From positions 120,001-152,000 of the forward strand of contig NC_009925.1 in assembly GCF_000018105.1 (NCBI RefSeq): a stretch of 32,000 nucleotides of DNA. Direction: 5' to 3'. The translations under genes and the position numbers were made by a program. Each line of letters starts with the position of its first letter. The first letter of the stretch is position 1. Source of the stretch: Acaryochloris marina MBIC11017 (GTDB taxonomy: Bacteria; Cyanobacteriota; Cyanobacteriia; Thermosynechococcales; Thermosynechococcaceae). This document shows, piece after piece, positions 4,959 through 30,898 of this stretch. The notes beneath the pieces are model-generated. The model was not told the origin of the DNA and did no database searches. It saw nothing but the letters and a program-made list of their open reading frames with translations.

Positions 4959-5465
4959 ATGTCAGCAAAAGCGCCATTTACTATCGAAAGAATTGGTTGG
5001 TATGACATCACCGAAAGACAGCGTGAGTTCTTTTGCTTTGAAGATGATTATCTACCACTACCTAAGGAACATGCATTACAGATTCACTTGTTAACATCAT
5101 CTTCAGCACAGCGAGTTTGGGAATGGCTTAGCCCTTCACTTCCTTCAGGATGGCCTGCCTCTAAACACAGATTCGCAAAGCGTACCGCTTTCAAACTTGA
5201 TGACGAGCACTGGAATTTAGATTCTGGAATCCAGATTGTTCGACAGTGGCTTCACGATCTTGGTATTCCCTACTCCACAGATATATTCCTCATTTATGAA
5301 GCGGACAAAATTGTTCAAATGCCCTGGAAATTGGTTGTTAAATATTGGAATGCACTGGCGTGGTCTATCGGGAACTATATGCTAACAATGGACTGTACTC
5401 GACAATGGGCCTGTTGTTTTCACCATGAAGAAGTAATCATATTTGGGACATTTTCCAAAAAATGA
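4959..5465 (+). CDS. hypothetical protein (AT-rich orphan gene)
   Basis: 168-aa Trp-rich ORF. My hand counts over three 60-nt blocks give 33-42% G+C, against about 50% in neighbouring core genes. I recognised no motif. Confidence 0.5.
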   Translation: MSAKAPFTIERIGWYDITERQREFFCFEDDYLPLPKEHALQIHLLTSSSAQRVWEWLSPSLPSGWPASKHRFAKRTAFKLDDEHWNLDSGIQIVRQWLHDLGIPYSTDIFLIYEADKIVQMPWKLVVKYWNALAWSIGNYMLTMDCTRQWACCFHHEEVIIFGTFSKK

Positions 5466-5563
5466 GTTGAAGTTGATAGGCTCGAGAGCTTAGAACCTAA
5501 CAAAAGCCTCCACAACTCGTCTGTTGCAGATGTTTCCCTTTTTCCTTAAACGTTTCAATCAAA

Positions 5564-6058
5564 TTGAAAAACAAGGACAAAAAGCTAATCCCATTTAAGA
5601 AAATCGTGTCCGGTGGCCAAACAGGGGCCGATCGTGCTGCCTTGGATTGGGCTATGGTCATGGAAATCGAACATGGAGGATGGTGTCCCCAAGGTCGACG
5701 GGCTGAAGATGGGATTATTCCAACCTGTTACCACTTGCAAGAAACACCTTCTTCAGCCTATGCTCAGCGGACAGAATGGAATATTCGCGATTCTGATGCC
5801 ACAGTTATCTTGTCCCTGTCATCCTTACTTGGCGGAGGCACCCTCTTAACCCAGCAATTGGCTCAGCAAATCGAAAAGCCTTGGATACATCTCCATGCAG
5901 GTATGGGGATACAGAATGGCGCTGCTCATCTCCATCAGTTTGTCAGCCAGTTCTCGATTAAAGTCCTAAATATTGCTGGCCCCCGACAGTCGGAGGAACC
6001 CACCATTGGCGAGTTCTTGACCCAAGTAATGAACACCGCCTTTACTAGAAACGATTAG
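5564..6058 (+). CDS. SLOG-superfamily protein, 'putative molybdenum carrier'/YpsA-like
   Basis: 164 aa with a TTG start. IVSGGQTGADRAALDWA...GGWCPQGRRAEDG...RTEWNIRDSDATVIL matches the GGQTG-DRAA / CP-GRRAEDG pattern of this family. Confidence 0.65.
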   Translation: MKNKDKKLIPFKKIVSGGQTGADRAALDWAMVMEIEHGGWCPQGRRAEDGIIPTCYHLQETPSSAYAQRTEWNIRDSDATVILSLSSLLGGGTLLTQQLAQQIEKPWIHLHAGMGIQNGAAHLHQFVSQFSIKVLNIAGPRQSEEPTIGEFLTQVMNTAFTRND

Positions 6059-6077
6059 CCCCTTTCCCTAGGCTGAG

Positions 6078-6566
6078 ATGCATCATGTCCACGTCAAAAT
6101 TGTGATTCGAGCTGATCAACAAACCGTTTTTCAAGCCATTTCCGACCATGAGAAGTTCTTGAATCGTCCTGAAGTTAAGTGCCAACTTATCAAAGAAGGT
6201 TCCGACTCCATCAATGGCTGCGGTGCCATCAGAGAAGTTACTCTATCCTGGGGCACTTTTCAGGAGGAAGTGACTGTTTTCCAAGCCCCTAACCATTTTG
6301 AATATAAGATTCGTTCTTTCTCCAATACTCAGGGAGAGTCAGGTTCCTTCCAGCATGATCGAGGCTGGTTGGATTTTTCATCTGAAAACGAGGGAACACA
6401 AATCGATTGGCATACTCGATTTGAAATCCCTAGTCCAATGGGTCAAAGCATCATCGAATGGTTAGCTGGGTGGCGAACCCAAAGGATGTTTATGAAACTA
6501 TTGCATCAAGTCAAAACCAAACTTGAGGATTCTCCAATTGTAGATACCATAGCAGGGCTGTTTTAA
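6078..6566 (+). CDS. SRPBCC (polyketide cyclase/START-like) family protein with its 3' end rewritten by an IS insertion
   Basis: 162-aa ORF with a START-like pattern. The last 4 codons and the stop (AGLF*) lie inside the left inverted repeat of the ISAs1 element. Confidence 0.55.
   Translation: MHHVHVKIVIRADQQTVFQAISDHEKFLNRPEVKCQLIKEGSDSINGCGAIREVTLSWGTFQEEVTVFQAPNHFEYKIRSFSNTQGESGSFQHDRGWLDFSSENEGTQIDWHTRFEIPSPMGQSIIEWLAGWRTQRMFMKLLHQVKTKLEDSPIVDTIAGLF
6543..6552. repeat. target-site duplication (GATACCATAG), left copy
   Basis: The identical 10-mer recurs at 7719-7728, immediately outside the two inverted repeats of the ISAs1 element. Confidence 0.8.
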
Positions 6567-7718
6567 GTTAGCAGCGAAAAAATGATGTCGACCCGATTAG
6601 CAAGCTTAGTCATAGCGGTTTTGAGGGATTGATAGCCGTTTAGACGCAGAATATTAATCACAATGGTTCTAAGCACTGACCAATTGAGCAGTGCTTGTTC
6701 ATCCTCTAGTCGATAATCATCTTCACCAAAGACCACATCCTTCGGCCAATGCAACCGATTTTCAATGCCCCAATGCTCTCGGACCAGAGATTGCCAATGA
6801 TGGGGTGAGGTGGCAGCTGAACTGATGTAATAGGCCGTGTTGTGATACGCCTTGCCTTGACGAGTACCCCATCGCTGGACACAAAGCACCGAGCGAATGG
6901 CTTCCCACTCTTGTAGGGCTATGCCGACAGGCTCATAAACCTGGATACACCGATGTTCCTCTCGTCCTCTACTCTGTATGGAGTGGGTATGCTCAGCCAT
7001 GGGTTTAAGACACTCAAAGTAAGTCTGGAGGTGGTCGTAAAGACGGCCCTGATTGCGCTTAACGGCGATAAGATAGTCATTAACCGAAGCCACAACTTGC
7101 TGAAGTGTTTTTTTGGGCGTGTAAGGCATCCATGGTGATTAACAAGCCATCGAGTTGTAGTGTTTCCAATAGAGCCTGGACGACTTTGATTTCGCTATTA
7201 TCCTCCTGAGTGAGGGCTTCGAGCTTGAGGGTGATGCCTGCTTCCACTGCGAATATACTCACCAATCCTACAAAACGCTGCTTGCCGTTTTCATCGGTGA
7301 GCCCCTGACAAATCCGTTTGCCATCCATGGATGCTGCATAATTATCGGGAGAGTGAGTCTGAGCTTTCGAGAGCATCCAAGCTTCAAATTGGTGGCTCAA
7401 CGATTGGAAGTCAAGCCCCTTCATCACGCGTCGAAAGGTACAGTGAGACGGAACTTGGAAGTTCTCCAGTCCCAACAGCTCACATAAAGGCTGCTGATAA
7501 TCGCTCGTAAAAGTTTCTAAGGGACAATACCCCTGGTATCCAGCGAGCATGCCCATCACCATCAAGAGCAATAGAAGCCATAACGGATGAGTACGACCAC
7601 GGGCACTGCGGAAGTCAGGGACTTGCTTCAAGGTATCGATCAGATGGCTCATCGGTCTCTCTACTCTTATTCAGTAGAACCATCCTATTTTTTCTAGGAG
7701 GAACGTAAAACAACCCTG
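6553..7718 (-). mobile_element. ISAs1-family insertion sequence (1166 bp)
   Basis: The terminal inverted repeats are CAGGGCTGTTTTA (6553-6565) and the reverse complement of 7706-7718, CAGGGTTGTTTTA (12/13 match). A 10-bp direct repeat flanks the element. It encodes an ISAs1/H-repeat-type DDE transposase. Confidence 0.85.
6563..7652 (-). pseudogene. ISAs1-family transposase split into two ORFs (190 + 188 aa) by a frameshift in an A7 tract
   Basis: The ORFs 7652..7080 and 7129..6563 overlap. Motifs present are DALHAQK, VKRNQGRL and HWGIENRLHWPKDVVFGED. Removing one A from the AAAAAAA run (T7 at 7108-7114 on the + strand) gives a continuous ...DALHAQKTLQQVVASVNDYLIAVKRNQ... reading frame. Confidence 0.8.
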
Positions 7719-8556: not shown

Positions 8557-9702
8557 TATACTCTAGGCGGCTAAGATATTAACTTTCTTAAAAGACTGAA
8601 ACTTGAGTGATAGTAAGGTGGTGAGTTTCGCCTTATGCTCTCCATTACACTGGTCGATGCACTGTTGAATGGCCCCTTTGAAGGCGGGAAAATCAGCATA
8701 ATACTTTGAATAGAGACATTCCTTGCGTACAAAACGCCAGAGTCGCTCAATCAAATTCAAATGGGGTGAATAGGAGGGCAGATAGACCAGCTCAATATCG
8801 ACGATCTCGGCAAAGTCCGTTACAAGCTGACATTTCTGGTATCGCGCATTGTCTAAAATCACGCTGATGGGTATGACTGGGTCAAGTAGCGCCAGCTTGG
8901 CCAGTAACAGGCACATACTGTGAGAATTGATATAGGTGTGGTTGGTAACGCTGACTAGGTCTTTGGTGATAGCGTCGAGCGCGCCCAGGACATTGAAACG
9001 TTGGCGACCAGAAGGAGAAGGGATGAAGATCCGAGTGATGCACCAGACAAACCCTAGATAAGCACGGTGAACAAAGTGAGCAGCATCCACAAAAAAGACA
9101 AGACGCTCTTGGCGTTGAGCTTCCTCTAATAAGGGTTCAAGGCGAGTGTGTCGAAACTGCTCTTGCTCCTCAATTTTCTCGGGCAGACTCGACTTTCCCG
9201 GCACATACCCCACTTTTCGATAACGACAACCGATGCGTTTGAGGAAGGCTTTGATTTGGGTGGGACTGCGTTTGATGCCTGTTAATTGCTCAATGACCGC
9301 TTGAGCTTCTGCACTGGTGCGGGGAGGATGTTGCTCAAAGTAAGCTCTCACACTATCGCTATGAGCGTTGAGTAGACTCGGTTGACCTTTATATTCAAGG
9401 GTCTTCAGCCCTTCAATCCCTCCTTGTTGATACTGACGAAGAGTTTTGGCTAAAGTGGGGCGACTAATCTGACAAAGCTGGCAGATCTGGGTATGGGAAA
9501 GACCTTGACTCTTCAAGTAGAGCACTTCCATCCGTCGCTGCACCCGTGGGTGAGGGTGATGATAGCGTTCGTAATTGAGTTGTTGGATTTCCTCTGCGGT
9601 GAAATCAATTTTAATCATGGGAGTGGAGGATAGGTGCGGGGATACTCCCAGTGTGCCAAATCTCTCTACCACAATGTTAAGTCACAAGTCGTCCGCAGTA
9701 TA
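8557..9702 (-). mobile_element. IS630-family (Tc1/mariner-like) insertion sequence; ends approximate
   Basis: It encodes an IS630 transposase. Both ends carry TA|TACT termini (TATACT at 8557-8562; AGTATA at 9697-9702). The inverted repeats are only weakly similar beyond that. An alternative left end, TATACTTAGGATGCC near 8489, fits about equally well. Confidence 0.6.
8563..9618 (-). CDS. IS630-family transposase
   Basis: The probable start is M19 of the ORF-track protein (MIKIDFTAEE..., ATG at 9618). There is an N-terminal HTH (SHTQICQLCQISRPTLAKTLRQY). The DDE region includes FFVDAAHF, ILDNARYQK and YLPSYSPHLNLIERLW. Confidence 0.85.
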   Translation of the reverse strand: MIKIDFTAEEIQQLNYERYHHPHPRVQRRMEVLYLKSQGLSHTQICQLCQISRPTLAKTLRQYQQGGIEGLKTLEYKGQPSLLNAHSDSVRAYFEQHPPRTSAEAQAVIEQLTGIKRSPTQIKAFLKRIGCRYRKVGYVPGKSSLPEKIEEQEQFRHTRLEPLLEEAQRQERLVFFVDAAHFVHRAYLGFVWCITRIFIPSPSGRQRFNVLGALDAITKDLVSVTNHTYINSHSMCLLLAKLALLDPVIPISVILDNARYQKCQLVTDFAEIVDIELVYLPSYSPHLNLIERLWRFVRKECLYSKYYADFPAFKGAIQQCIDQCNGEHKAKLTTLLSLKFQSFKKVNILAA

Positions 9703-10076
9703 GCGTTTTCCAGCTTTATGTAGTGAATTTCTAGTCAATTTTCCAAAAGGACCATCTACAGGCAAAGATCAGGTTTGTGGCGCAATCCGATATTCTCACC
9801 GTTAGAAACTCAGGAGTTTGGACAATTGTCAATGAAGAAGTGCCCCCTTGAGAGTTGAAAGAGAAACCGTTCTATCCGGTTTATCAGCCCTATTTCAGAA
9901 CTATATCGTTTATGATAGTTAAGTCTTCTGAAGCTGGTGAGTTGGGTCAATCCGTCGCCACAAACTGGCCCAGACTTCCACCCCTGCGTCCGGGGTATAG
10001 CAATATACCCATGTTGTCCCTAATGCCCGATTTGATGTGATGCTGTCAAATCCGGTTACCCATTCATTATTCCCCT

Positions 10077-20062: not shown

Positions 20063-21742
20063 ATGTCCTTAGCATTAGATTGCGATCGCAAGTGGTGGCA
20101 CGGGGGAGTAATTTACCAGATCTATCCCCTGACCTTTGCGGATGGGAATGGGGATGGGGTAGGTGATTTACGGGGAATTATTCAACGACTGGATTACCTA
20201 AACGATGGTGACCCGGATAAAACGGCTGACTTGGGCGTCGACGCCATTTGGCTGTCTCCCGTTAATCAGTCACCGATGGTGGATAACGGCTACGATATCA
20301 GCGACTACCGAGATATTTGCCCCATCTTTGGCACCTTAGCAGAATTCAAAGAACTGCTAGAGCAATGCCATATCCGAGGGATCCGGGTAATTATGGATAT
20401 GGTACTGAACCATACCTCTAATCAGCATCCTTGGTTTATCGAATCCAGCGCTAGCCGGGACAATCCCAAAAGCGATTGGTACCTCTGGCAAGATCCAGGC
20501 TATAAGGACGGGCTTCCCAATAACTGGTTATCCTATTTTGGCGGGTCGGGCTGGACCTTTAATGAAGACCGTCAACAATATTACTTTCACGTTTTTAATG
20601 AAAACCAACCTGACTTAAATTGGCGCAATCCTGAGGTGAAGGCCGCCATTTATGACATGCTGCGCTATTGGCTTGATATGGGGGTTGATGGCTTTCGCCT
20701 AGATGCGTCTAGTGTCTATAGCAAGGACCAATATTATCGGGATAACCCCGTCAAATTCGGGGCAACGGATAAGAATGCCTACTATAACCAGGATCACCTC
20801 TACGACAAAGATCTGCCCGATAACCATGGAATTATTCGGGAAATTCGTGCTCTGATGGACGAGTACGAAGACCGGGTCCTGATTGGTGAAACTTTTATCG
20901 ACAGTCGTTTATATGACTCCAATAGCTTTTATGGGGTCAATAATGATGAGCTGCATCTTCCCTTTGCCTTCGAATTCCCCTTTAGTCCTTGGTATCCCGG
21001 TTATTTACAACGGGAAATCGAAAAGAAGGAGCGCATTACCCCGGCTGGGGCTTGGCCCACTTATTTTCTGGATAACCACGATTTACCCCGCCATTTATCT
21101 CGCTGGATTGAATGTGCTTTATGCACGAACCCCACGGAAATTGCTAAAGCCGCAGCCACTCTGCTGTTAACAGTGCGGGGGACGCCTGTACTGTACTACG
21201 GTCAAGAAATTGGCATGGTAGATAACCAAGATATCCCCCCGGAGCTACAGCGAGATCAAGCTGTGGTGGCTAGCCCCACGGGAGAGTTGCCTCCCAACCG
21301 AGATGGCTCCCGCACCCCGATGCAATGGGACGCGTCTGCGAATGCTGGATTTAGCTTTGGCAAGGAGGTTACCCCTTGGCTCCCGGTTCATGCCAACTAT
21401 CAGGAAGTCAATGTCGAAACCACCTTAAAAGATGATGCATCGATTTTGAACTTCTATCGCAAGTTACTCTACGTGCGGGCGCAAAGTGAGGCGCTTCGGT
21501 TTGGTAGTTGGCGAACGCTGATTCATTACCCCTACGAGCATATGGCCTATATGCGAGAAACGGCCTCTGAGCAGGTGCTGATCTTGATCAATTTCGCCTA
21601 TGAGAAGCCCCTAGAACTAGATAAGCCGATCACCAAAGGGGGTTGGACGGTTTTAGCTTCCAACAAATGGGAGTCGGGTAAAACCTTGGCACTTCCTGAG
21701 AATTTGCAATCCTTTGAAATTGATGTGTTGAGGAAAGCATAA
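20063..21742 (+). CDS. GH13 alpha-glucosidase / oligo-1,6-glucosidase family protein
   Basis: GH13 regions are present: DAIWLSP, DMVLNHTS, GVDGFRLDA (nucleophile), IGETF (acid/base) and FLDNHD. Confidence 0.9.
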   Translation: MSLALDCDRKWWHGGVIYQIYPLTFADGNGDGVGDLRGIIQRLDYLNDGDPDKTADLGVDAIWLSPVNQSPMVDNGYDISDYRDICPIFGTLAEFKELLEQCHIRGIRVIMDMVLNHTSNQHPWFIESSASRDNPKSDWYLWQDPGYKDGLPNNWLSYFGGSGWTFNEDRQQYYFHVFNENQPDLNWRNPEVKAAIYDMLRYWLDMGVDGFRLDASSVYSKDQYYRDNPVKFGATDKNAYYNQDHLYDKDLPDNHGIIREIRALMDEYEDRVLIGETFIDSRLYDSNSFYGVNNDELHLPFAFEFPFSPWYPGYLQREIEKKERITPAGAWPTYFLDNHDLPRHLSRWIECALCTNPTEIAKAAATLLLTVRGTPVLYYGQEIGMVDNQDIPPELQRDQAVVASPTGELPPNRDGSRTPMQWDASANAGFSFGKEVTPWLPVHANYQEVNVETTLKDDASILNFYRKLLYVRAQSEALRFGSWRTLIHYPYEHMAYMRETASEQVLILINFAYEKPLELDKPITKGGWTVLASNKWESGKTLALPENLQSFEIDVLRKA

Positions 21743-22245
21743 AGCTTAGGTGAATATTTCAAAATGATGCGAATATTTCAGTCCAACCACTATCTGCATA
21801 AGTGCGATCGCAAGCTGCAAAAAAAGAAGATATAGCATCTAGAATCATTACATTGCAAATAGTTTTTTTAGGTATTGTGCGTGTCAGGCTTGGTTCGCAC
21901 AACATCACGGACTTGCTCAAGGAGTTTGCGGGGTGGCATAGAATGCTTGATAACAACCGATATTAGGACTTATACGGTTATTTTGCCCATTAACATTCTT
22001 CATTACTGCATGACAAATATGCTGTGAACGCCTTTTCTATATTATTTTCAGGTAATCAACGATAAGTTTGCATATCGGGAAATTTCCGTAATACGTACTC
22101 TTTCTGCTGTGGTGCTGATGTAGAGAAGGTTTGGCTTTTAAAAAGCAGACAAACTGTTAATCTATTTCATGTTAAGAGGAAATTTGCCTTTTAATTATAG
22201 TTATGTCGACTAATGGACTCCACCTAATATTCAGATGGTACTGAA

Positions 22246-23259
22246 TTGAGCAACTATCGATTTTCACACGCACAGAAGTACGCCATTTGGCTTAGACATG
22301 GGAAACGTTGCTACGTATGCACAGAGCCTTTGCGGTTAGTCGAAGTCACGATTGACCATGTGATCCCAGAGCGACTTCTGAATGATGATGTTGAAAGAGA
22401 CCGTGTCTTTGGAGAATACGGATTGGACGGTTCGACTTTTCAGATAAATGGTTATGAGAATTGGCTTCCTGCGCACTATCGCTGCAACCAGGAAAAGTCC
22501 GGTAGTATTTTTGAGTTTGTTCCGGCAATAAAGCTGCGTTTGTCGAGACTCAGTAAGTTAGGCCCATCTGTTCAAAAAACTGCAGAAAGGGTGTTGGCCG
22601 ATGCACGAACGCAACGTGCACTGGCTAATGTTCTCGATGCTGTGGCGACAGGAAACCTGACTAATGAAGAACGAGAGACACTGCTCGCAGAGTTGCGCGA
22701 CGTCGGCACTGCCGACACAGATGTGATTGAGAGCGAGTTACTTGTCCGGCCGAACCCAAGCGCGGAAAGACTGCAAATACTTGCAGCAGAGTTCGAATCG
22801 CTGGAAGAATTCAAGAGGTCATTGTATTCGATTTCCTTGCAAATCAATGAATCGGATGAGGGTGACACTTCAAGGCGTGTTGGTGAGTTTCTTTCTGGAA
22901 AGATTAACCTTGCGCATTTGTACTCACACTACCTCCCTCCGAACGTGCGAAACGCAATTAATGCCGGATCTGATGCGCAGATGAGAGTACAGCAGACGCG
23001 CATGGCTGGAAAAGTCCCCGCGGGCTACGAGGATCGAGGGCTCCCGATTCAGTTCACAACTGACGCAGAACAAAAGATCATTAGCAACGCGGCTGTCAAA
23101 TGGGGAGTGTCCGAACAAGAAGCAGAAAGTGTCTATCGTGTAATTGCGTTGCTCGTTCAAGAATGTCAGACCGCAATGCAGGATGCGCTTCGTCTGGTCC
23201 ATGAAGCACTGGACAATCGACTCATTGCAATCCGGGCAGAACGCAACGAAATTATTTAG
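22246..23259 (+). CDS. HNH endonuclease domain protein with an uncharacterised roughly 240-aa C-terminal region
   Basis: 337 aa with a TTG start. The HNH/zinc-finger core is CYVC...TIDHVIPERLL...NWLPAHYRCNQEKS, all within the first 85 aa or so. The rest is helical and I recognised no motif in it. Confidence 0.7.
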   Translation: MSNYRFSHAQKYAIWLRHGKRCYVCTEPLRLVEVTIDHVIPERLLNDDVERDRVFGEYGLDGSTFQINGYENWLPAHYRCNQEKSGSIFEFVPAIKLRLSRLSKLGPSVQKTAERVLADARTQRALANVLDAVATGNLTNEERETLLAELRDVGTADTDVIESELLVRPNPSAERLQILAAEFESLEEFKRSLYSISLQINESDEGDTSRRVGEFLSGKINLAHLYSHYLPPNVRNAINAGSDAQMRVQQTRMAGKVPAGYEDRGLPIQFTTDAEQKIISNAAVKWGVSEQEAESVYRVIALLVQECQTAMQDALRLVHEALDNRLIAIRAERNEII

Positions 23260-23438
23260 GATTTAAGGTATAAGCCGTATTTCGTAGATGGTCTTGGCTC
23301 GTGTGATGTCGGCATAACTATGGGTTGAACCGGAGCCTCAAAACTGCGTTTCTTATACTATTGTCTTTTTTCCCGGCCCGGTTAACTCAAACATTTGACG
23401 CATTTTTTCTTGTATACTTTCCATCTGAATGGAAGAAA

Positions 23439-24746
23439 CTATTGCTCTGAGGTTTCTCTGGGTAAGGGTTTTGCGGGTGGTGTGATGTTGCGATCGCACA
23501 AGAATTGATCCACTCGATCCAAAAAGGCCATATCCTCCTTCGGAAAGTTCACAGAAATCGGTTGTTTTTTCGCAAACCATCCCCGTTGGGGAGGGGGTGC
23601 AGACCGCAAAAAGTCAAAGGCCTGATTAAACTTTTGAGGCGTGGTCATCACGGGTGCATCCAAATGGCAGGGAATAATGCGGCGAAAATTCCATTGCGCC
23701 ACTCGATCCGCCCACTGGAGTACCACTTCTGGATTACGATTAAAAATCAATTTTCGCAGAATAGGTGCAACAACCGGATTCCCATCCTGGCGAAACGTAT
23801 CGAAGGCTCGTTTCCAGTCTGGATGCCACTGCACGGGGAACAAGCCAAAATAAGCTTTCTTAGATCGATCAGGAGCTTGTCGAGCATCCTTAAAAGTTTG
23901 TTTGGTGTTGACAACGTCCAACACGCTCGGCTGGAAATAAAAGGCAAAAAGCGCCATCCGTTGCCACCCTTTGCGGCGAATTGTTGGTGTATCTTCAACC
24001 ACATCAAAGGCATTATCTTTGGCATGGAACAGCATTGGATAGGGCGCAAACTGCAATACCTGAGGCGGGTTGACAGGAATAGAAACAATTGAATCTGTGA
24101 TCAATAGGGTTTTGGTTGGTTTGTGATAGAGAGCGACTTCTTCAAATGGCCCAAGACCTAAATCCACTGGTCCTAAAATGGCATAGTCAAATTCATCAGC
24201 GAAGGGCGTGTCAGCACTATTGGCCGGCAGTTTTTGAGTTTGACGTCCAGAAAGCCCCAGCCAGCTCAGGGGGATATTCAGAGGAAATGTCCACTGGCTG
24301 GGAGAGACAAAAACTTGAGCTTTGGGAAACCGTTTAGAGAACGGTCCTGTAAACACCTTATGCTCAATCCCGGACGCGGTCGGCAGGATGATGTATTTAA
24401 TCTCACCATGCTTTTCAATCAGGTCTTTGACCATCCGGATACATTCCCGCGTGGGGGCAACTGGCGCATAGACCAACAACCCTCCTGCCGCCAATTTAAT
24501 AACGGTCATCCGCACCGGAATAATCACATATAGAATGCCCTGGAGCTGCTCAAAGGTCCAAATTTTACCTTTGACAATCTCCCGACAGAGGGTACGGCGT
24601 TGCCCATAGGGATACAAGGGCACAAAAGGCCAATAGGGCCATGACCAATCCCTGGAGCGTTGGGGTTGTTTGGGTACTGATTGATTTTGTTCGCTTCTCT
24701 GGGTTGTTGCCACTACCACGCATCCACACTTCAATGATTGCAGCAA
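23439..24746 (-). CDS. DUF4336-like conserved protein
   Basis: 435 aa. IWTFEQLQG...VRMTVIKLAAGGLLVYAPVAPTRECIRMV...IKYIILPTASGIEHKVF matches my memory of the cyanobacterial/plant DUF4336 pattern. The true start may be internal. Confidence 0.6.
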   Translation of the reverse strand: MLQSLKCGCVVVATTQRSEQNQSVPKQPQRSRDWSWPYWPFVPLYPYGQRRTLCREIVKGKIWTFEQLQGILYVIIPVRMTVIKLAAGGLLVYAPVAPTRECIRMVKDLIEKHGEIKYIILPTASGIEHKVFTGPFSKRFPKAQVFVSPSQWTFPLNIPLSWLGLSGRQTQKLPANSADTPFADEFDYAILGPVDLGLGPFEEVALYHKPTKTLLITDSIVSIPVNPPQVLQFAPYPMLFHAKDNAFDVVEDTPTIRRKGWQRMALFAFYFQPSVLDVVNTKQTFKDARQAPDRSKKAYFGLFPVQWHPDWKRAFDTFRQDGNPVVAPILRKLIFNRNPEVVLQWADRVAQWNFRRIIPCHLDAPVMTTPQKFNQAFDFLRSAPPPQRGWFAKKQPISVNFPKEDMAFLDRVDQFLCDRNITPPAKPLPRETSEQ

Positions 24747-29263: not shown

Positions 29264-30898
29264 TCAATTCTCTCCACTCTTGGAGCTGGTTTGAATCGAT
29301 TGTTGAACAGTAGATTGGCCGACAAACGGTGCACCCGTACCAAATTTGAATAGGTCTCCCGTTCCGCCATCTAAGATGAGGGTGAGACGGTATTTGTGAT
29401 CGCCCAGGACATCAAACTGAGACGTCAGTCCTGAGGCAACCTCCTCGCGCCATCCAGCTTGAATGGATTCCACCTTGCCCGTCTTACGGTTAAGACGTTG
29501 TAATCCCGTGATCTCGCTCTCACCAAAATCAAACTCAACGGTGAGCTGCTGACGCGTTTGTTCAATCGAATGTCTCTTGCCAGCTAATCCATTGGTGAGC
29601 ATAAAGTACTGCTGGTTAGTTGCAGGGCCATCAAAACTTTCTCGTAAAGGCTTGAAATAGCCTACCAACACATCACCATTACGCCCACCATATAGATTTC
29701 CCAGGTTTTTAACCTCTAGACTGGTCATGTAAGGATCAGCCTTGGCATCCCAATGGGGAATCTCGGGAGCAATTAAATCTGCGAGAGTCGGAGGTCTAGG
29801 CACTATTCGTACATCTGTGCTAAGCAGCCGAACGAGAGTTGGTCCTAGATTGAGGCTGTGTTGGTTGATCTCGGCGATATGTTGAAAAGCTGGCGTGGGA
29901 TCTTTTCCAAAGGGTTGTTTAAAAAATGGAGCGTTTAATTTCCCTCCAACATCACTAGTGCCATTGTAGGTAAAGGCATTAAGGAGTTTAAATCCCAGGG
30001 TTAAGGCTGCGAATTGTTGCTGACTCAGTTCCGACTCCGAAGGGAAACGCGACCAAGTCCCTACGCCAGTCGCAGATCCTTTAAAGGTTTGAAGCCATAA
30101 TCCGTAGGGAATGGGCTTCCGCCCTGTGCCGTCATTGCCAGCCAAGGCTAATCGACGATAGCGCATCATCGCGTAGTACAGTTGGGCGGGACGTCCGCCT
30201 TGATTACCCAAATCGTTCCAGATTCCATAGGGATAGGTGTCTTGCATCAGTAGATCGGGCTGGATGCGACGCATATAGCGTTGGATATTGAGGTCACTGG
30301 TACTGCCAAAGCCGCCAAAGCGTTCATCACCATGCTGGTTGGTATAGAGAAGGGTATTGGGAAGAAGCGGTCGGTAATGTTTGATCCAAGTTTCTAATTC
30401 TTGAAGTTCACTTTCTTTGCCAATATCTTGTTCGTCTTTAAATTGCCAACTGACAAGATTCTGAATTTGGTCGGATTGGAAGATACGATCAGGAAGGCTT
30501 TGGGCAGAATCTTGGGCATTGGCTTGCCAAGTAGACCAGGGCTTTTGCCCAGCGATTGTTTCGGAAGAAGCAAGTTGTCCCCTACCAATATCAAGGGTGG
30601 TAAAGTTGCTCGCTTCCCAGTTCTGCCAAAGCTCGGAATCGTTTTCTCTGCCTTTAATGGTGAAGCCAATGGTGAGGGCGTTGAGCTGTAGCCCCCTTTG
30701 AATCAAGATTCGATGGCCACGATCTAGTGATTGGAGGTCATTTGGCGTTGCGATCGCATCACCGCTTCCAGCCACAATCAGTCCCAAAAACAATCCACAG
30801 CTTTTGAGAAGCATCGCCGGCAGGGACAGAGGTTTCAATCTGCCGAGACTGGACCAGAGTTGTGTTCGGCAGGGCCTTTCCATTGCCATATTTCCCAT
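29264..30898 (-). CDS. hypothetical secreted protein
   Basis: 544-aa ORF. The internal M29 (ATG at 30814) starts a signal-peptide-like MLLKSCGLFLGLIVAGSGDAIA. I recognised no catalytic motif. Confidence 0.55.
   Translation of the reverse strand: MGNMAMERPCRTQLWSSLGRLKPLSLPAMLLKSCGLFLGLIVAGSGDAIATPNDLQSLDRGHRILIQRGLQLNALTIGFTIKGRENDSELWQNWEASNFTTLDIGRGQLASSETIAGQKPWSTWQANAQDSAQSLPDRIFQSDQIQNLVSWQFKDEQDIGKESELQELETWIKHYRPLLPNTLLYTNQHGDERFGGFGSTSDLNIQRYMRRIQPDLLMQDTYPYGIWNDLGNQGGRPAQLYYAMMRYRRLALAGNDGTGRKPIPYGLWLQTFKGSATGVGTWSRFPSESELSQQQFAALTLGFKLLNAFTYNGTSDVGGKLNAPFFKQPFGKDPTPAFQHIAEINQHSLNLGPTLVRLLSTDVRIVPRPPTLADLIAPEIPHWDAKADPYMTSLEVKNLGNLYGGRNGDVLVGYFKPLRESFDGPATNQQYFMLTNGLAGKRHSIEQTRQQLTVEFDFGESEITGLQRLNRKTGKVESIQAGWREEVASGLTSQFDVLGDHKYRLTLILDGGTGDLFKFGTGAPFVGQSTVQQSIQTSSKSGEN

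Follow-up and report, generated by a model that had tools for sequence, protein, structure and literature searches.

Why does a gene for a putative nuclease stand alone between two convergent conserved genes in a cyanobacterial genome, and what might its product be for? The gene is AM1_0143 of Acaryochloris marina MBIC11017, the single gene inside a 1696-bp interval between a GH13 (alpha-glucosidase-like) gene and a DUF4336 gene. It lies in a stretch of 32,000 nucleotides (NC_009925.1, positions 120,001 to 152,000), here called the window, whose numbering is used throughout. Its product is 100% identical to ABW25229.1, annotated as 'hypothetical protein AM1_0143'. By its motifs and predicted fold this protein is an HNH-superfamily nuclease, and comparison with related genomes indicates that the gene is horizontally acquired, single-gene cargo in a variable slot. 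An earlier description of the locus, made from the letters of the window and referred to here as the original prediction, had seen a lone 337-residue, TTG-start HNH reading frame between convergent alpha-glucosidase and DUF4336 genes, and this is borne out by the open reading frame (ORF) call and by the Pfam matches of the flanks (Table 1).

A putative catalytic head and interchangeable tails

The TTG start proves to be right, since it coincides with the N-termini of the wider family, dozens of whose members start at the same residue as AM1_0143 with the pattern M-x-K-Y-x-F. The original GenBank call of 337 residues agrees with these N-termini. The RefSeq version, WP_041658452.1 (309 residues, starting at 22330 rather than 22246), would delete the first zinc knuckle with C22 and C25, and the annotation of the sister strain MBIC10699 (278 residues) also starts downstream of the conserved N-terminus, without these two cysteines.

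The HNH motifs that had been quoted for AM1_0143 are intact: C22-x2-C25, D37-H38-V-I-P, N72-W-L-P and H77-x2-C80-N81-x2-K84. They keep the canonical order, with the catalytic D37-H38 followed by the structural N72 and by the metal-binding N81 (with K84), and they align to the HNH motifs of Cas9 and Gme. Alignments of 41-149 relatives show the motif residues to be fixed or almost fixed; among 75-149 relatives D37, H38, N72, C80 and K84 do not vary at all, and C22, C25 and N81 vary hardly at all. The ligands of the zinc treble clef in AM1_0143 are complete (C22, C25, H77 and C80), with position 77 occupied by either His or Cys among relatives. Since the residues for catalysis and for zinc binding vary little or not at all, the enzyme is probably active.

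Profile and structure comparisons agree with this assignment. The Pfam HNH model PF01844 scores 20.6 bits on AM1_0143, below its gathering threshold of 21.4, and aligns to the first half-motif only, because an insert of about 25 residues splits the HNH core; 91 of the 149 relatives match it at E≤1e-3. The phage profile phrog_2118 (PHROG 2118, HNH endonuclease) matches residues 3-101 with E=4.5e-8, and a profile of the family's N-terminal region matches, among structures in the PDB, the HNH domains of type II-D and II-C Cas9 and the Gme HNH nickase (E=4e-5 to 1e-3). An AlphaFold2 (AF2) model built from a 75-sequence alignment has a mean predicted local distance difference test score (pLDDT) of 85. 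Its core has the beta-beta-alpha arrangement, with strands 34-38 and 73-77 and helix 78-84 (pLDDT 87-96), and is followed by helices only, of which 93-118, 120-135 and 140-153 make up a predicted stalk. Foldseek searches with the core gave weak matches only, to the HNH domains of Gme and Cas9 (prob 0.93, E 0.5).

How far does the likeness among relatives extend along the protein? When 1.84 billion representatives were searched exhaustively with phmmer, 856 proteins matched at E≤1e-3, 385 of them at E≤1e-10, so that the family comprises at least 856 clusters at 50% identity. The best 150 of these 856 matches all align to residues 1 to about 130-170, with only three reaching 190-233; since the matches end there, the family unit is taken to be the HNH core together with the basic helical stalk. 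Beyond this unit the C-termini differ. Zinc ribbons occur in 85 of 193 and PLD domains in three, trypsin-like, TPR, DUF4214 and SEC-C domains are single cases each, and mostly nothing known is found. The clusters are tiny (1-9 members each) and their hosts patchy, including cyanobacteria, Bacteroidota, Alpha- and Gammaproteobacteria and actinomycete plasmids; the JGI metagenomes yielded no close relatives. As judged from these alignments, this is a large, unnamed and modular family with a fixed N-terminal module of about 150 residues and interchangeable C-termini.

The tail of AM1_0143, an acidic region predicted to be wholly helical, is an orphan even within this family. The claim that the last 240 or so residues match nothing stands only for residues from about 236 to 337, which are nearly unique; residues 86-150 are conserved in the family, and residues 151-235 are common to a small subfamily. 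A profile of the tail (residues 149-337) retrieves only HNH-family proteins (P0003, P0012, P0215 and P0216), and residues 151-337 have no sequence match in the PDB or Pfam. Foldseek comparison of two AF2 models with the PDB and BFVD gave no match with E≤1e-3. The low-ranked likeness to alpha-helical pore-forming toxins (E about 1, prob about 0.1) is not credible. A modified-base reader was looked for by Pfam, PDB-sequence and fold searches, which revealed no SRA, YTH, EVE, ASCH, winged-helix or inactive EndoIII domain. Nor did Pfam and PDB-sequence searches find in the C-terminal region any known DNA-binding module of homing endonucleases, a match that the original prediction had named as counting against it.

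This orphan tail is maintained along with the rest of the protein. The only close orthologue (P0002, on Logan contig L001) is 82% identical in amino acid sequence, and its DNA homology to the window sets in only 4 bp ahead of the start codon and runs out at the stop codon, between unrelated flanks. The ratio of non-synonymous to synonymous substitution rates (dN/dS) between the two genes is 0.13 overall, and is 0.064 for residues 1-90, 0.13 for residues 91-150, 0.08 for residues 151-235 and 0.23 for residues 236-337. Since the ratio is low in every segment, the whole protein, tail included, is by this measure under purifying selection.

A variable slot between convergent genes

Is the gene a fixed resident of this locus? 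We used the DUF4336 protein to fetch equivalent loci, with one genome per species. DUF4336 was found in 311 cyanobacterial stretches; 80 cyanobacterial loci were retrieved, and the HNH protein is encoded in none of them. In A. marina its gene keeps its place in the GH13-DUF4336 slot. In the closest species, Acaryochloris sp. IP29b_bin.137 (L005), whose GH13 protein and gene are 97% and 91% identical to those of the window, the slot holds an unrelated gene, and in an uncultured Acaryochloris (L006; 87% identity of GH13 protein) it is empty. The breaks in homology between L005 and the window lie just past the flanking stop codons, at distances of 8-9 bp and 18 bp. No target-site duplication was found at the insert boundaries, and no tRNAs.

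The empty slot is filled by a perfect hairpin with a 14-bp stem, CCATTCGTATTGCT / AGCAATACGAATGG (z=-4.0), which is probably a bidirectional terminator common to the convergent GH13 and DUF4336 genes. The alternative cargo in L005 encodes a protein whose N-terminal region looks like alternating beta and alpha elements and whose C-terminus has a hydrophobic helix; it has no match in Pfam, PADLOC, PHROGs or the PDB. The idea that it is TIR-like with a transmembrane helix is unsupported, both the libraries and a pairwise comparison with a TIR_2 protein being empty.

A second kind of variation is seen within A. marina itself. In strain MBIC10699 a 1.14-kb IS630-family insertion sequence (IS), with the target TA duplicated, sits within the first zinc knuckle, between C22 and C25, in surroundings that are otherwise 100% identical to the window over 5 kb. 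The HNH gene is thus dispensable, being split in this sister strain, and because the window carries a 99.9% identical copy of the inserted element, this IS has been recently active in A. marina. Adjoining that copy is what is probably an IS broken by a frameshift or by decay: two overlapping ORFs (window 6563-7652, minus strand), which carry between them the two halves of an IS4-like transposase, DDE_Tnp_1_assoc and DDE_Tnp_1.

From the insertion polymorphism and the IS disruption together it follows that AM1_0143 is accessory, dispensable and horizontally acquired cargo in a small hotspot. The original prediction had regarded horizontal acquisition as not demonstrated, with a coding G+C content not clearly atypical. 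The composition is indeed that of the host (48.8% for the ORF against 48.6% in both neighbours, with G+C at third codon positions, GC3, also like the host); acquisition is now shown by the empty slot in L006, the other gene in L005 and the loss of homology close to the flanking stops. The synteny check that it had proposed has also been run, and the gene proves not to be a constant occupant of this position throughout the order. These comparisons document a small hotspot of integration in Acaryochloris, placed between two core genes that converge.

The non-coding leader of AM1_0143 is part of the insert. About 500 bp had been claimed for it, with 33% G+C in the last 290 bp; the measured values are 503 bp and 34.5%. 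Its G+C content is low for the intergenic DNA of the window (37-47%) without being an outlier. The palindrome GGAAATTTCC and the half-site GGAAATTTG reported there were both confirmed. The direct repeat GAATATTTCA was correctly placed in its first copy and is shifted by one position in its second (21771, not 21772), and the hairpin with a 7-bp stem (-12.7 kcal/mol, z=-2.2) is present at slightly different coordinates. An operator role for the palindrome, half-site and direct repeat is not supported, since none rises above chance: about half of the Markov-shuffled versions of the 503-bp leader contain a 10-bp palindrome too, and the repeats are short. The leader's second 10-bp palindrome, TGCGATCGCA, is the cyanobacterial HIP1 motif, which suggests that the leader has resided for some time in, or derives from, a cyanobacterial genome.

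We also considered a structured RNA, a riboswitch or a guide-RNA-like leader, and rejected them: the fold of the whole leader is no better than that of shuffles (z=-0.72), no Rfam family matches even at E≤1, and the L001 orthologue has no conserved counterpart of the leader. Its ORFs are short, none conserved or credible, and the 179 bp downstream of the gene are likewise without a credible ORF. A scan for the sigma-70 consensus found two sites where 3.3 are expected from shuffles, and the promoter in Table 1 is a candidate only.

Elsewhere in the window (4959-6566 and 878-1663), three tandem genes of about 165 residues each encode a DUF2947 protein, a YpsA SLOG protein in circularly permuted form (PF12694, E=4e-58) and a protein resembling polyketide cyclases, and an R2K-clade ATP-grasp gene (PF18299) lies upstream of this trio; SLOG and R2K domains are occasionally found in conflict systems. 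A 544-residue ORF at 29264-30898 (minus strand) has no Pfam match at E≤0.01.

Table 1. Features of the AM1_0143 locus and of the loci compared with it (window coordinates unless a locus handle is given)
Feature	Position	Strand	Details
GH13 alpha-glucosidase-like (alpha-amylase family) gene, conserved flank	20063-21742	+	PF00128, E=2.4e-130
A+T-rich non-coding leader	21743-22245	.	G+C 36.8%
Lineage-specific variable segment, single-gene insert	21751-23420	.	blastn homology to L005 ends at 21750 and resumes at 23421
Direct repeat GAATATTTCA	21752 and 21771	
HIP1 motif TGCGATCGCA	21803-21812		palindrome
Hairpin, 7-bp stem	21875-21881 / 21896-21902		
Palindrome GGAAATTTCC	22078-22087		
Candidate sigma-70-like promoter	22172-22201	+	TTAAGA-18-TATAGT, 45 bp upstream of start; overlaps GGAAATTTG
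Half-site GGAAATTTG	22178-22186		
Inverted repeat, 14 nt (13/14)	22197-22210 / 23308-23321		36 bp upstream and 49 bp downstream of ORF
AM1_0143, solitary HNH nuclease gene in the GH13-DUF4336 slot of A. marina MBIC11017	22246-23259	+	337 residues, TTG start; ORF call
HNH core (beta-beta-alpha-metal, zinc treble clef), residues 1-85	22246-22500	+	Pfam, phrog_2118, AF2, invariant columns
C22/C25 codons	22309-22320	+	motif CYVC
IS630 insertion point in MBIC10699	22312-22313	.	TA in codon Y23; L112 alignment, 100% identical on both sides
D37-H38 codons	22354-22359	+	motif DHVIP
N72 codon	22459-22461	+	motif ENWLP
H77/C80, N81, K84	residues 77-84 (N81, 22486-22488)	+	motif HYRCNQEK
Family-specific helical stalk, residues 86-150	22501-22695	+	basic, pI 9.7; conserved with HNH core
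Acidic all-helical orphan region, residues 151-337	22696-23256	+	pI 4.9; profile, PDB and Foldseek searches
DUF4336 gene, conserved flank	23439-24746	-	PF14234, E=2.5e-151
IS630-family element	8557-9706 (ORF 8563-9672)	-	DDE_3 + HTH; 99.9% identical to MBIC10699 insert
L005, Acaryochloris sp. IP29b_bin.137, closest species: 1239-bp slot	L005:9511-10206	-	unrelated 231-residue gene
L006, uncultured Acaryochloris metagenome-assembled genome: empty slot	L006:9285-9349	.	GH13 and DUF4336 stops 65 bp apart

A possible part in conflict, and its rivals

What, then, might the nuclease do for its host or for itself? We see an even chance that AM1_0143 is a single-protein nuclease that acts in conflicts with phages or other mobile DNA. 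Its N-terminal HNH domain would cut DNA, and its C-terminal module, whether sensor, autoinhibitor or specificity module, would set when cutting occurs or what is cut. Such a division of labour would follow the modular logic of modification-dependent (Type IV) restriction enzymes and of further defences that consist of one nuclease protein. The original prediction had proposed a single-gene defence or abortive-infection effector, and circumstantial evidence supports this in part: the tail is variable, the gene solitary, its relatives have defence and mobile elements for neighbours, and it is dispensable in a sister strain.

The solitary state of the gene, with neither a partner nor a methylase overlooked, had been part of the same prediction and holds here. 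Pfam scanning of the 29 ORFs in the 32 kb of the window revealed no methyltransferase, no ATPase partner and no SUKH/SMI1_KNR4 or other immunity family; the sole ABC ATPase lies 6 kb away on the other strand. Clustering of the neighbours at 18 family loci gave no recurrent partner, the HNH gene itself being the sole common item. A search for remote synteny through the APH genes that occur near P0005 and in the window failed, as these genes do not cluster.

Other members of the family are often found close to genes for defence or mobile elements. PADLOC matches among 98 neighbours of family members include a Type III methyltransferase and restriction endonuclease, Avs3a (3e-144), PDC-S31 (4e-99) and TIR-TM (2.5e-66), together with WYL, an Argonaute-associated restriction endonuclease, AbiEi and a phospholipase effector. 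In an IncC plasmid region of V. cholerae the family member lies near Type III restriction-modification, SMEK and DUF4365 genes; on one viral or prophage contig it adjoins an integrase; and other contexts include plasmids with a relaxase or integrase, and plain metabolic surroundings. The presence of defence genes and mobile elements within 5 kb of family members suggests a role in conflict. In Sunxiuqinia indica (Bacteroidota; L090:8889-9680) a 263-residue TIR_2 protein is encoded directly after the family member. It is probably the neighbour with the strong TIR-TM match, and the two genes may form a two-gene defence patch.

Several points weigh against a conflict role. The AM1_0143 protein has no match in PADLOC (E≤1) or NCBIfam, and members of its family match only the HNH cores of PtuB or Cas9 there, and weakly. 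The signal from defence neighbours comes from 18 loci with no control set, and the window in MBIC11017 is not a defence island, the neighbours of AM1_0143 there being metabolic genes. The tail shows no recognisable modified-base reader or sensor fold, and the proposal gives no account of how the host genome escapes cutting. Finally, a sentence of Zhang, Iyer and Aravind (2011; PMC3113570) assigns AM1_0143 to a different functional class, the SUKH-linked HNH toxins, listing it as a conventional HNH nuclease near SUKH-superfamily genes with four cysteines kept.

If the conflict reading is right, AM1_0143 is an entry to a large and very diverse one-gene nuclease family that PADLOC 2.0 does not recognise. 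We would extend it further only with clear doubt, to the proposal that the family of at least 856 clusters represents new, widespread single-protein immune nucleases, each with the fixed head and a swappable sensor for a different invader cue. The swappable modules could then be zinc ribbons, PLD, protease, TPR or orphan helical domains, and the helical tail of AM1_0143 could be a fold not seen before in a sensor or autoinhibitor. If the conflict reading is wrong, AM1_0143 is a commonplace accessory HNH gene and of limited interest. Relatives of MBIC11017 offer convenient material for testing: in MBIC10699 an IS has knocked the gene out naturally, within a locus that is 100% identical in all else, and genomes with an empty site and with alternative cargo are available.

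Could AM1_0143 instead be a non-defence cellular nuclease, engaged in repair, recombination, competence or nucleoid processing, or simply a gene drifting to loss? Its housekeeping neighbours, its host-like G+C and GC3, the lack of a defence-library match and its disruption by an IS in one strain are all in keeping with this. A conserved cellular function is not indicated, however, because the gene is missing from the closest species and from all 80 other cyanobacterial loci, and the dN/dS of 0.13 speaks against decay. High diversity, swapped tails and tiny clusters are, moreover, typical of conflict genes. We therefore regard this explanation as rather unlikely.

A homing or otherwise selfish nuclease, which would cleave genomes that lack it, at the empty GH13-DUF4336 junction or at a different cognate site, and be copied in by repair, appears decidedly unlikely. 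The gene does have a precise seat between two conserved genes, with an empty site in a relative (L006), and its core resembles phage HNH families (the phrog_2118 match). The ORF alone appears to have moved, because homology to L001 covers little else; at 80% coding identity, however, the non-coding flanks of L001 may have diverged past detection. The ORF is also bracketed by an inverted repeat, which we take to be chance rather than a signal of mobility: about 0.25 such repeats are expected by our estimate, and there is none around the L001 orthologue. A tblastn search of 50,697 phage genomes gave no match to AM1_0143, and 2.9 million viral contigs contain only two good family members. The gene is in neither an intron nor an intein, its tail is acidic (pI 4.9) and lacks a known homing-endonuclease DNA-binding module, and family members occur in unrelated contexts. 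The unrelated gene in the L005 slot points to a general hotspot rather than to nuclease-specific targeting. The free-standing homing endonuclease that the original prediction had offered as its second model thus finds little support.

Very improbable, finally, is a toxin of a toxin-immunity or toxin-antitoxin pair, of the polymorphic-toxin or SUKH class, with its partner missed or encoded elsewhere: the sentence in PMC3113570 is in its favour, and a solitary non-specific nuclease requires some self-protection, but the 29 window ORFs include no SUKH/SMI1_KNR4 or other immunity family, the 503 bp upstream and 179 bp downstream have no credible ORF, no partner recurs at the 18 family loci, the HNH domain is N-terminal with no secretion or trafficking domain, opposite to polymorphic-toxin architecture, and the zinc ligands are C-C-H-C, not the four cysteines stated in that sentence.

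Comparison with known systems

Among solved structures the best profile and fold matches to AM1_0143 are the HNH domains of Cas9 (types II-C and II-D) and Gme (PDB 9lgi, 8d2k, 4oge and 4h9d), which have the same order of motifs, CxxC, DH-x-x-P, N and [C/H]xxC-N-x-x-K. The match is weak (E 4e-5 to 1e-3; Foldseek E about 0.5) and covers only the core of about 60 residues. Unlike Cas9, AM1_0143 has no RuvC domain, guide RNA or CRISPR array, and its core is split by the insert of about 25 residues.

In the defence library the closest family is PtuB of Septu, matched by up to 16 of the 149 family representatives (best E 4e-7). AM1_0143 differs from Septu in having no PADLOC match to PtuB at E≤1, and no PtuA ATPase is adjacent to it or to its relatives at the 18 loci. 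It differs from Type II restriction-modification systems in that no methyltransferase domain is present among the 29 window ORFs. With the free-standing HNH homing endonucleases of phages (PHROG 2118) it shares the HNH core (E=4.5e-8), and like them it stands as a single gene in an intergenic position. The core lies at 160-239 of 301 in the PHROG 2118 profile, however, an architecture opposite to that of AM1_0143, which is unmatched in phage genomes and has no known DNA-binding module. In contrast to SUKH-linked polymorphic toxins, it carries its HNH domain at residues 1-85, with no N-terminal delivery domain and no immunity ORF adjacent, and a SUKH neighbourhood was not reproduced among the 29 ORFs of the 32-kb window. 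AM1_0143 thus falls outside Septu, Type II restriction-modification, Cas9/IscB, SUKH-linked toxins and phage homing endonucleases, because the features that define each of these are lacking.

The Type IV, modification-dependent enzymes of the McrA kind remain. McrA has its HNH domain at the C-terminus, in contrast to the N-terminal position in AM1_0143. A further difference from Type IV enzymes is that the tail of AM1_0143 is acidic and has no recognisable reader domain. Several sources nevertheless label members of the family automatically as 'McrA', and the likeness in organisation is plain: like these enzymes, AM1_0143 is solitary, without a methylase, and joins a catalytic module to an exchangeable second module. 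A model of catalytic head and sensor tail has been described for solitary modification-dependent nucleases (PMC12191111). By analogy, AM1_0143 would appear closest in its mode of action to a Type IV enzyme or to another modular, solitary nuclease.

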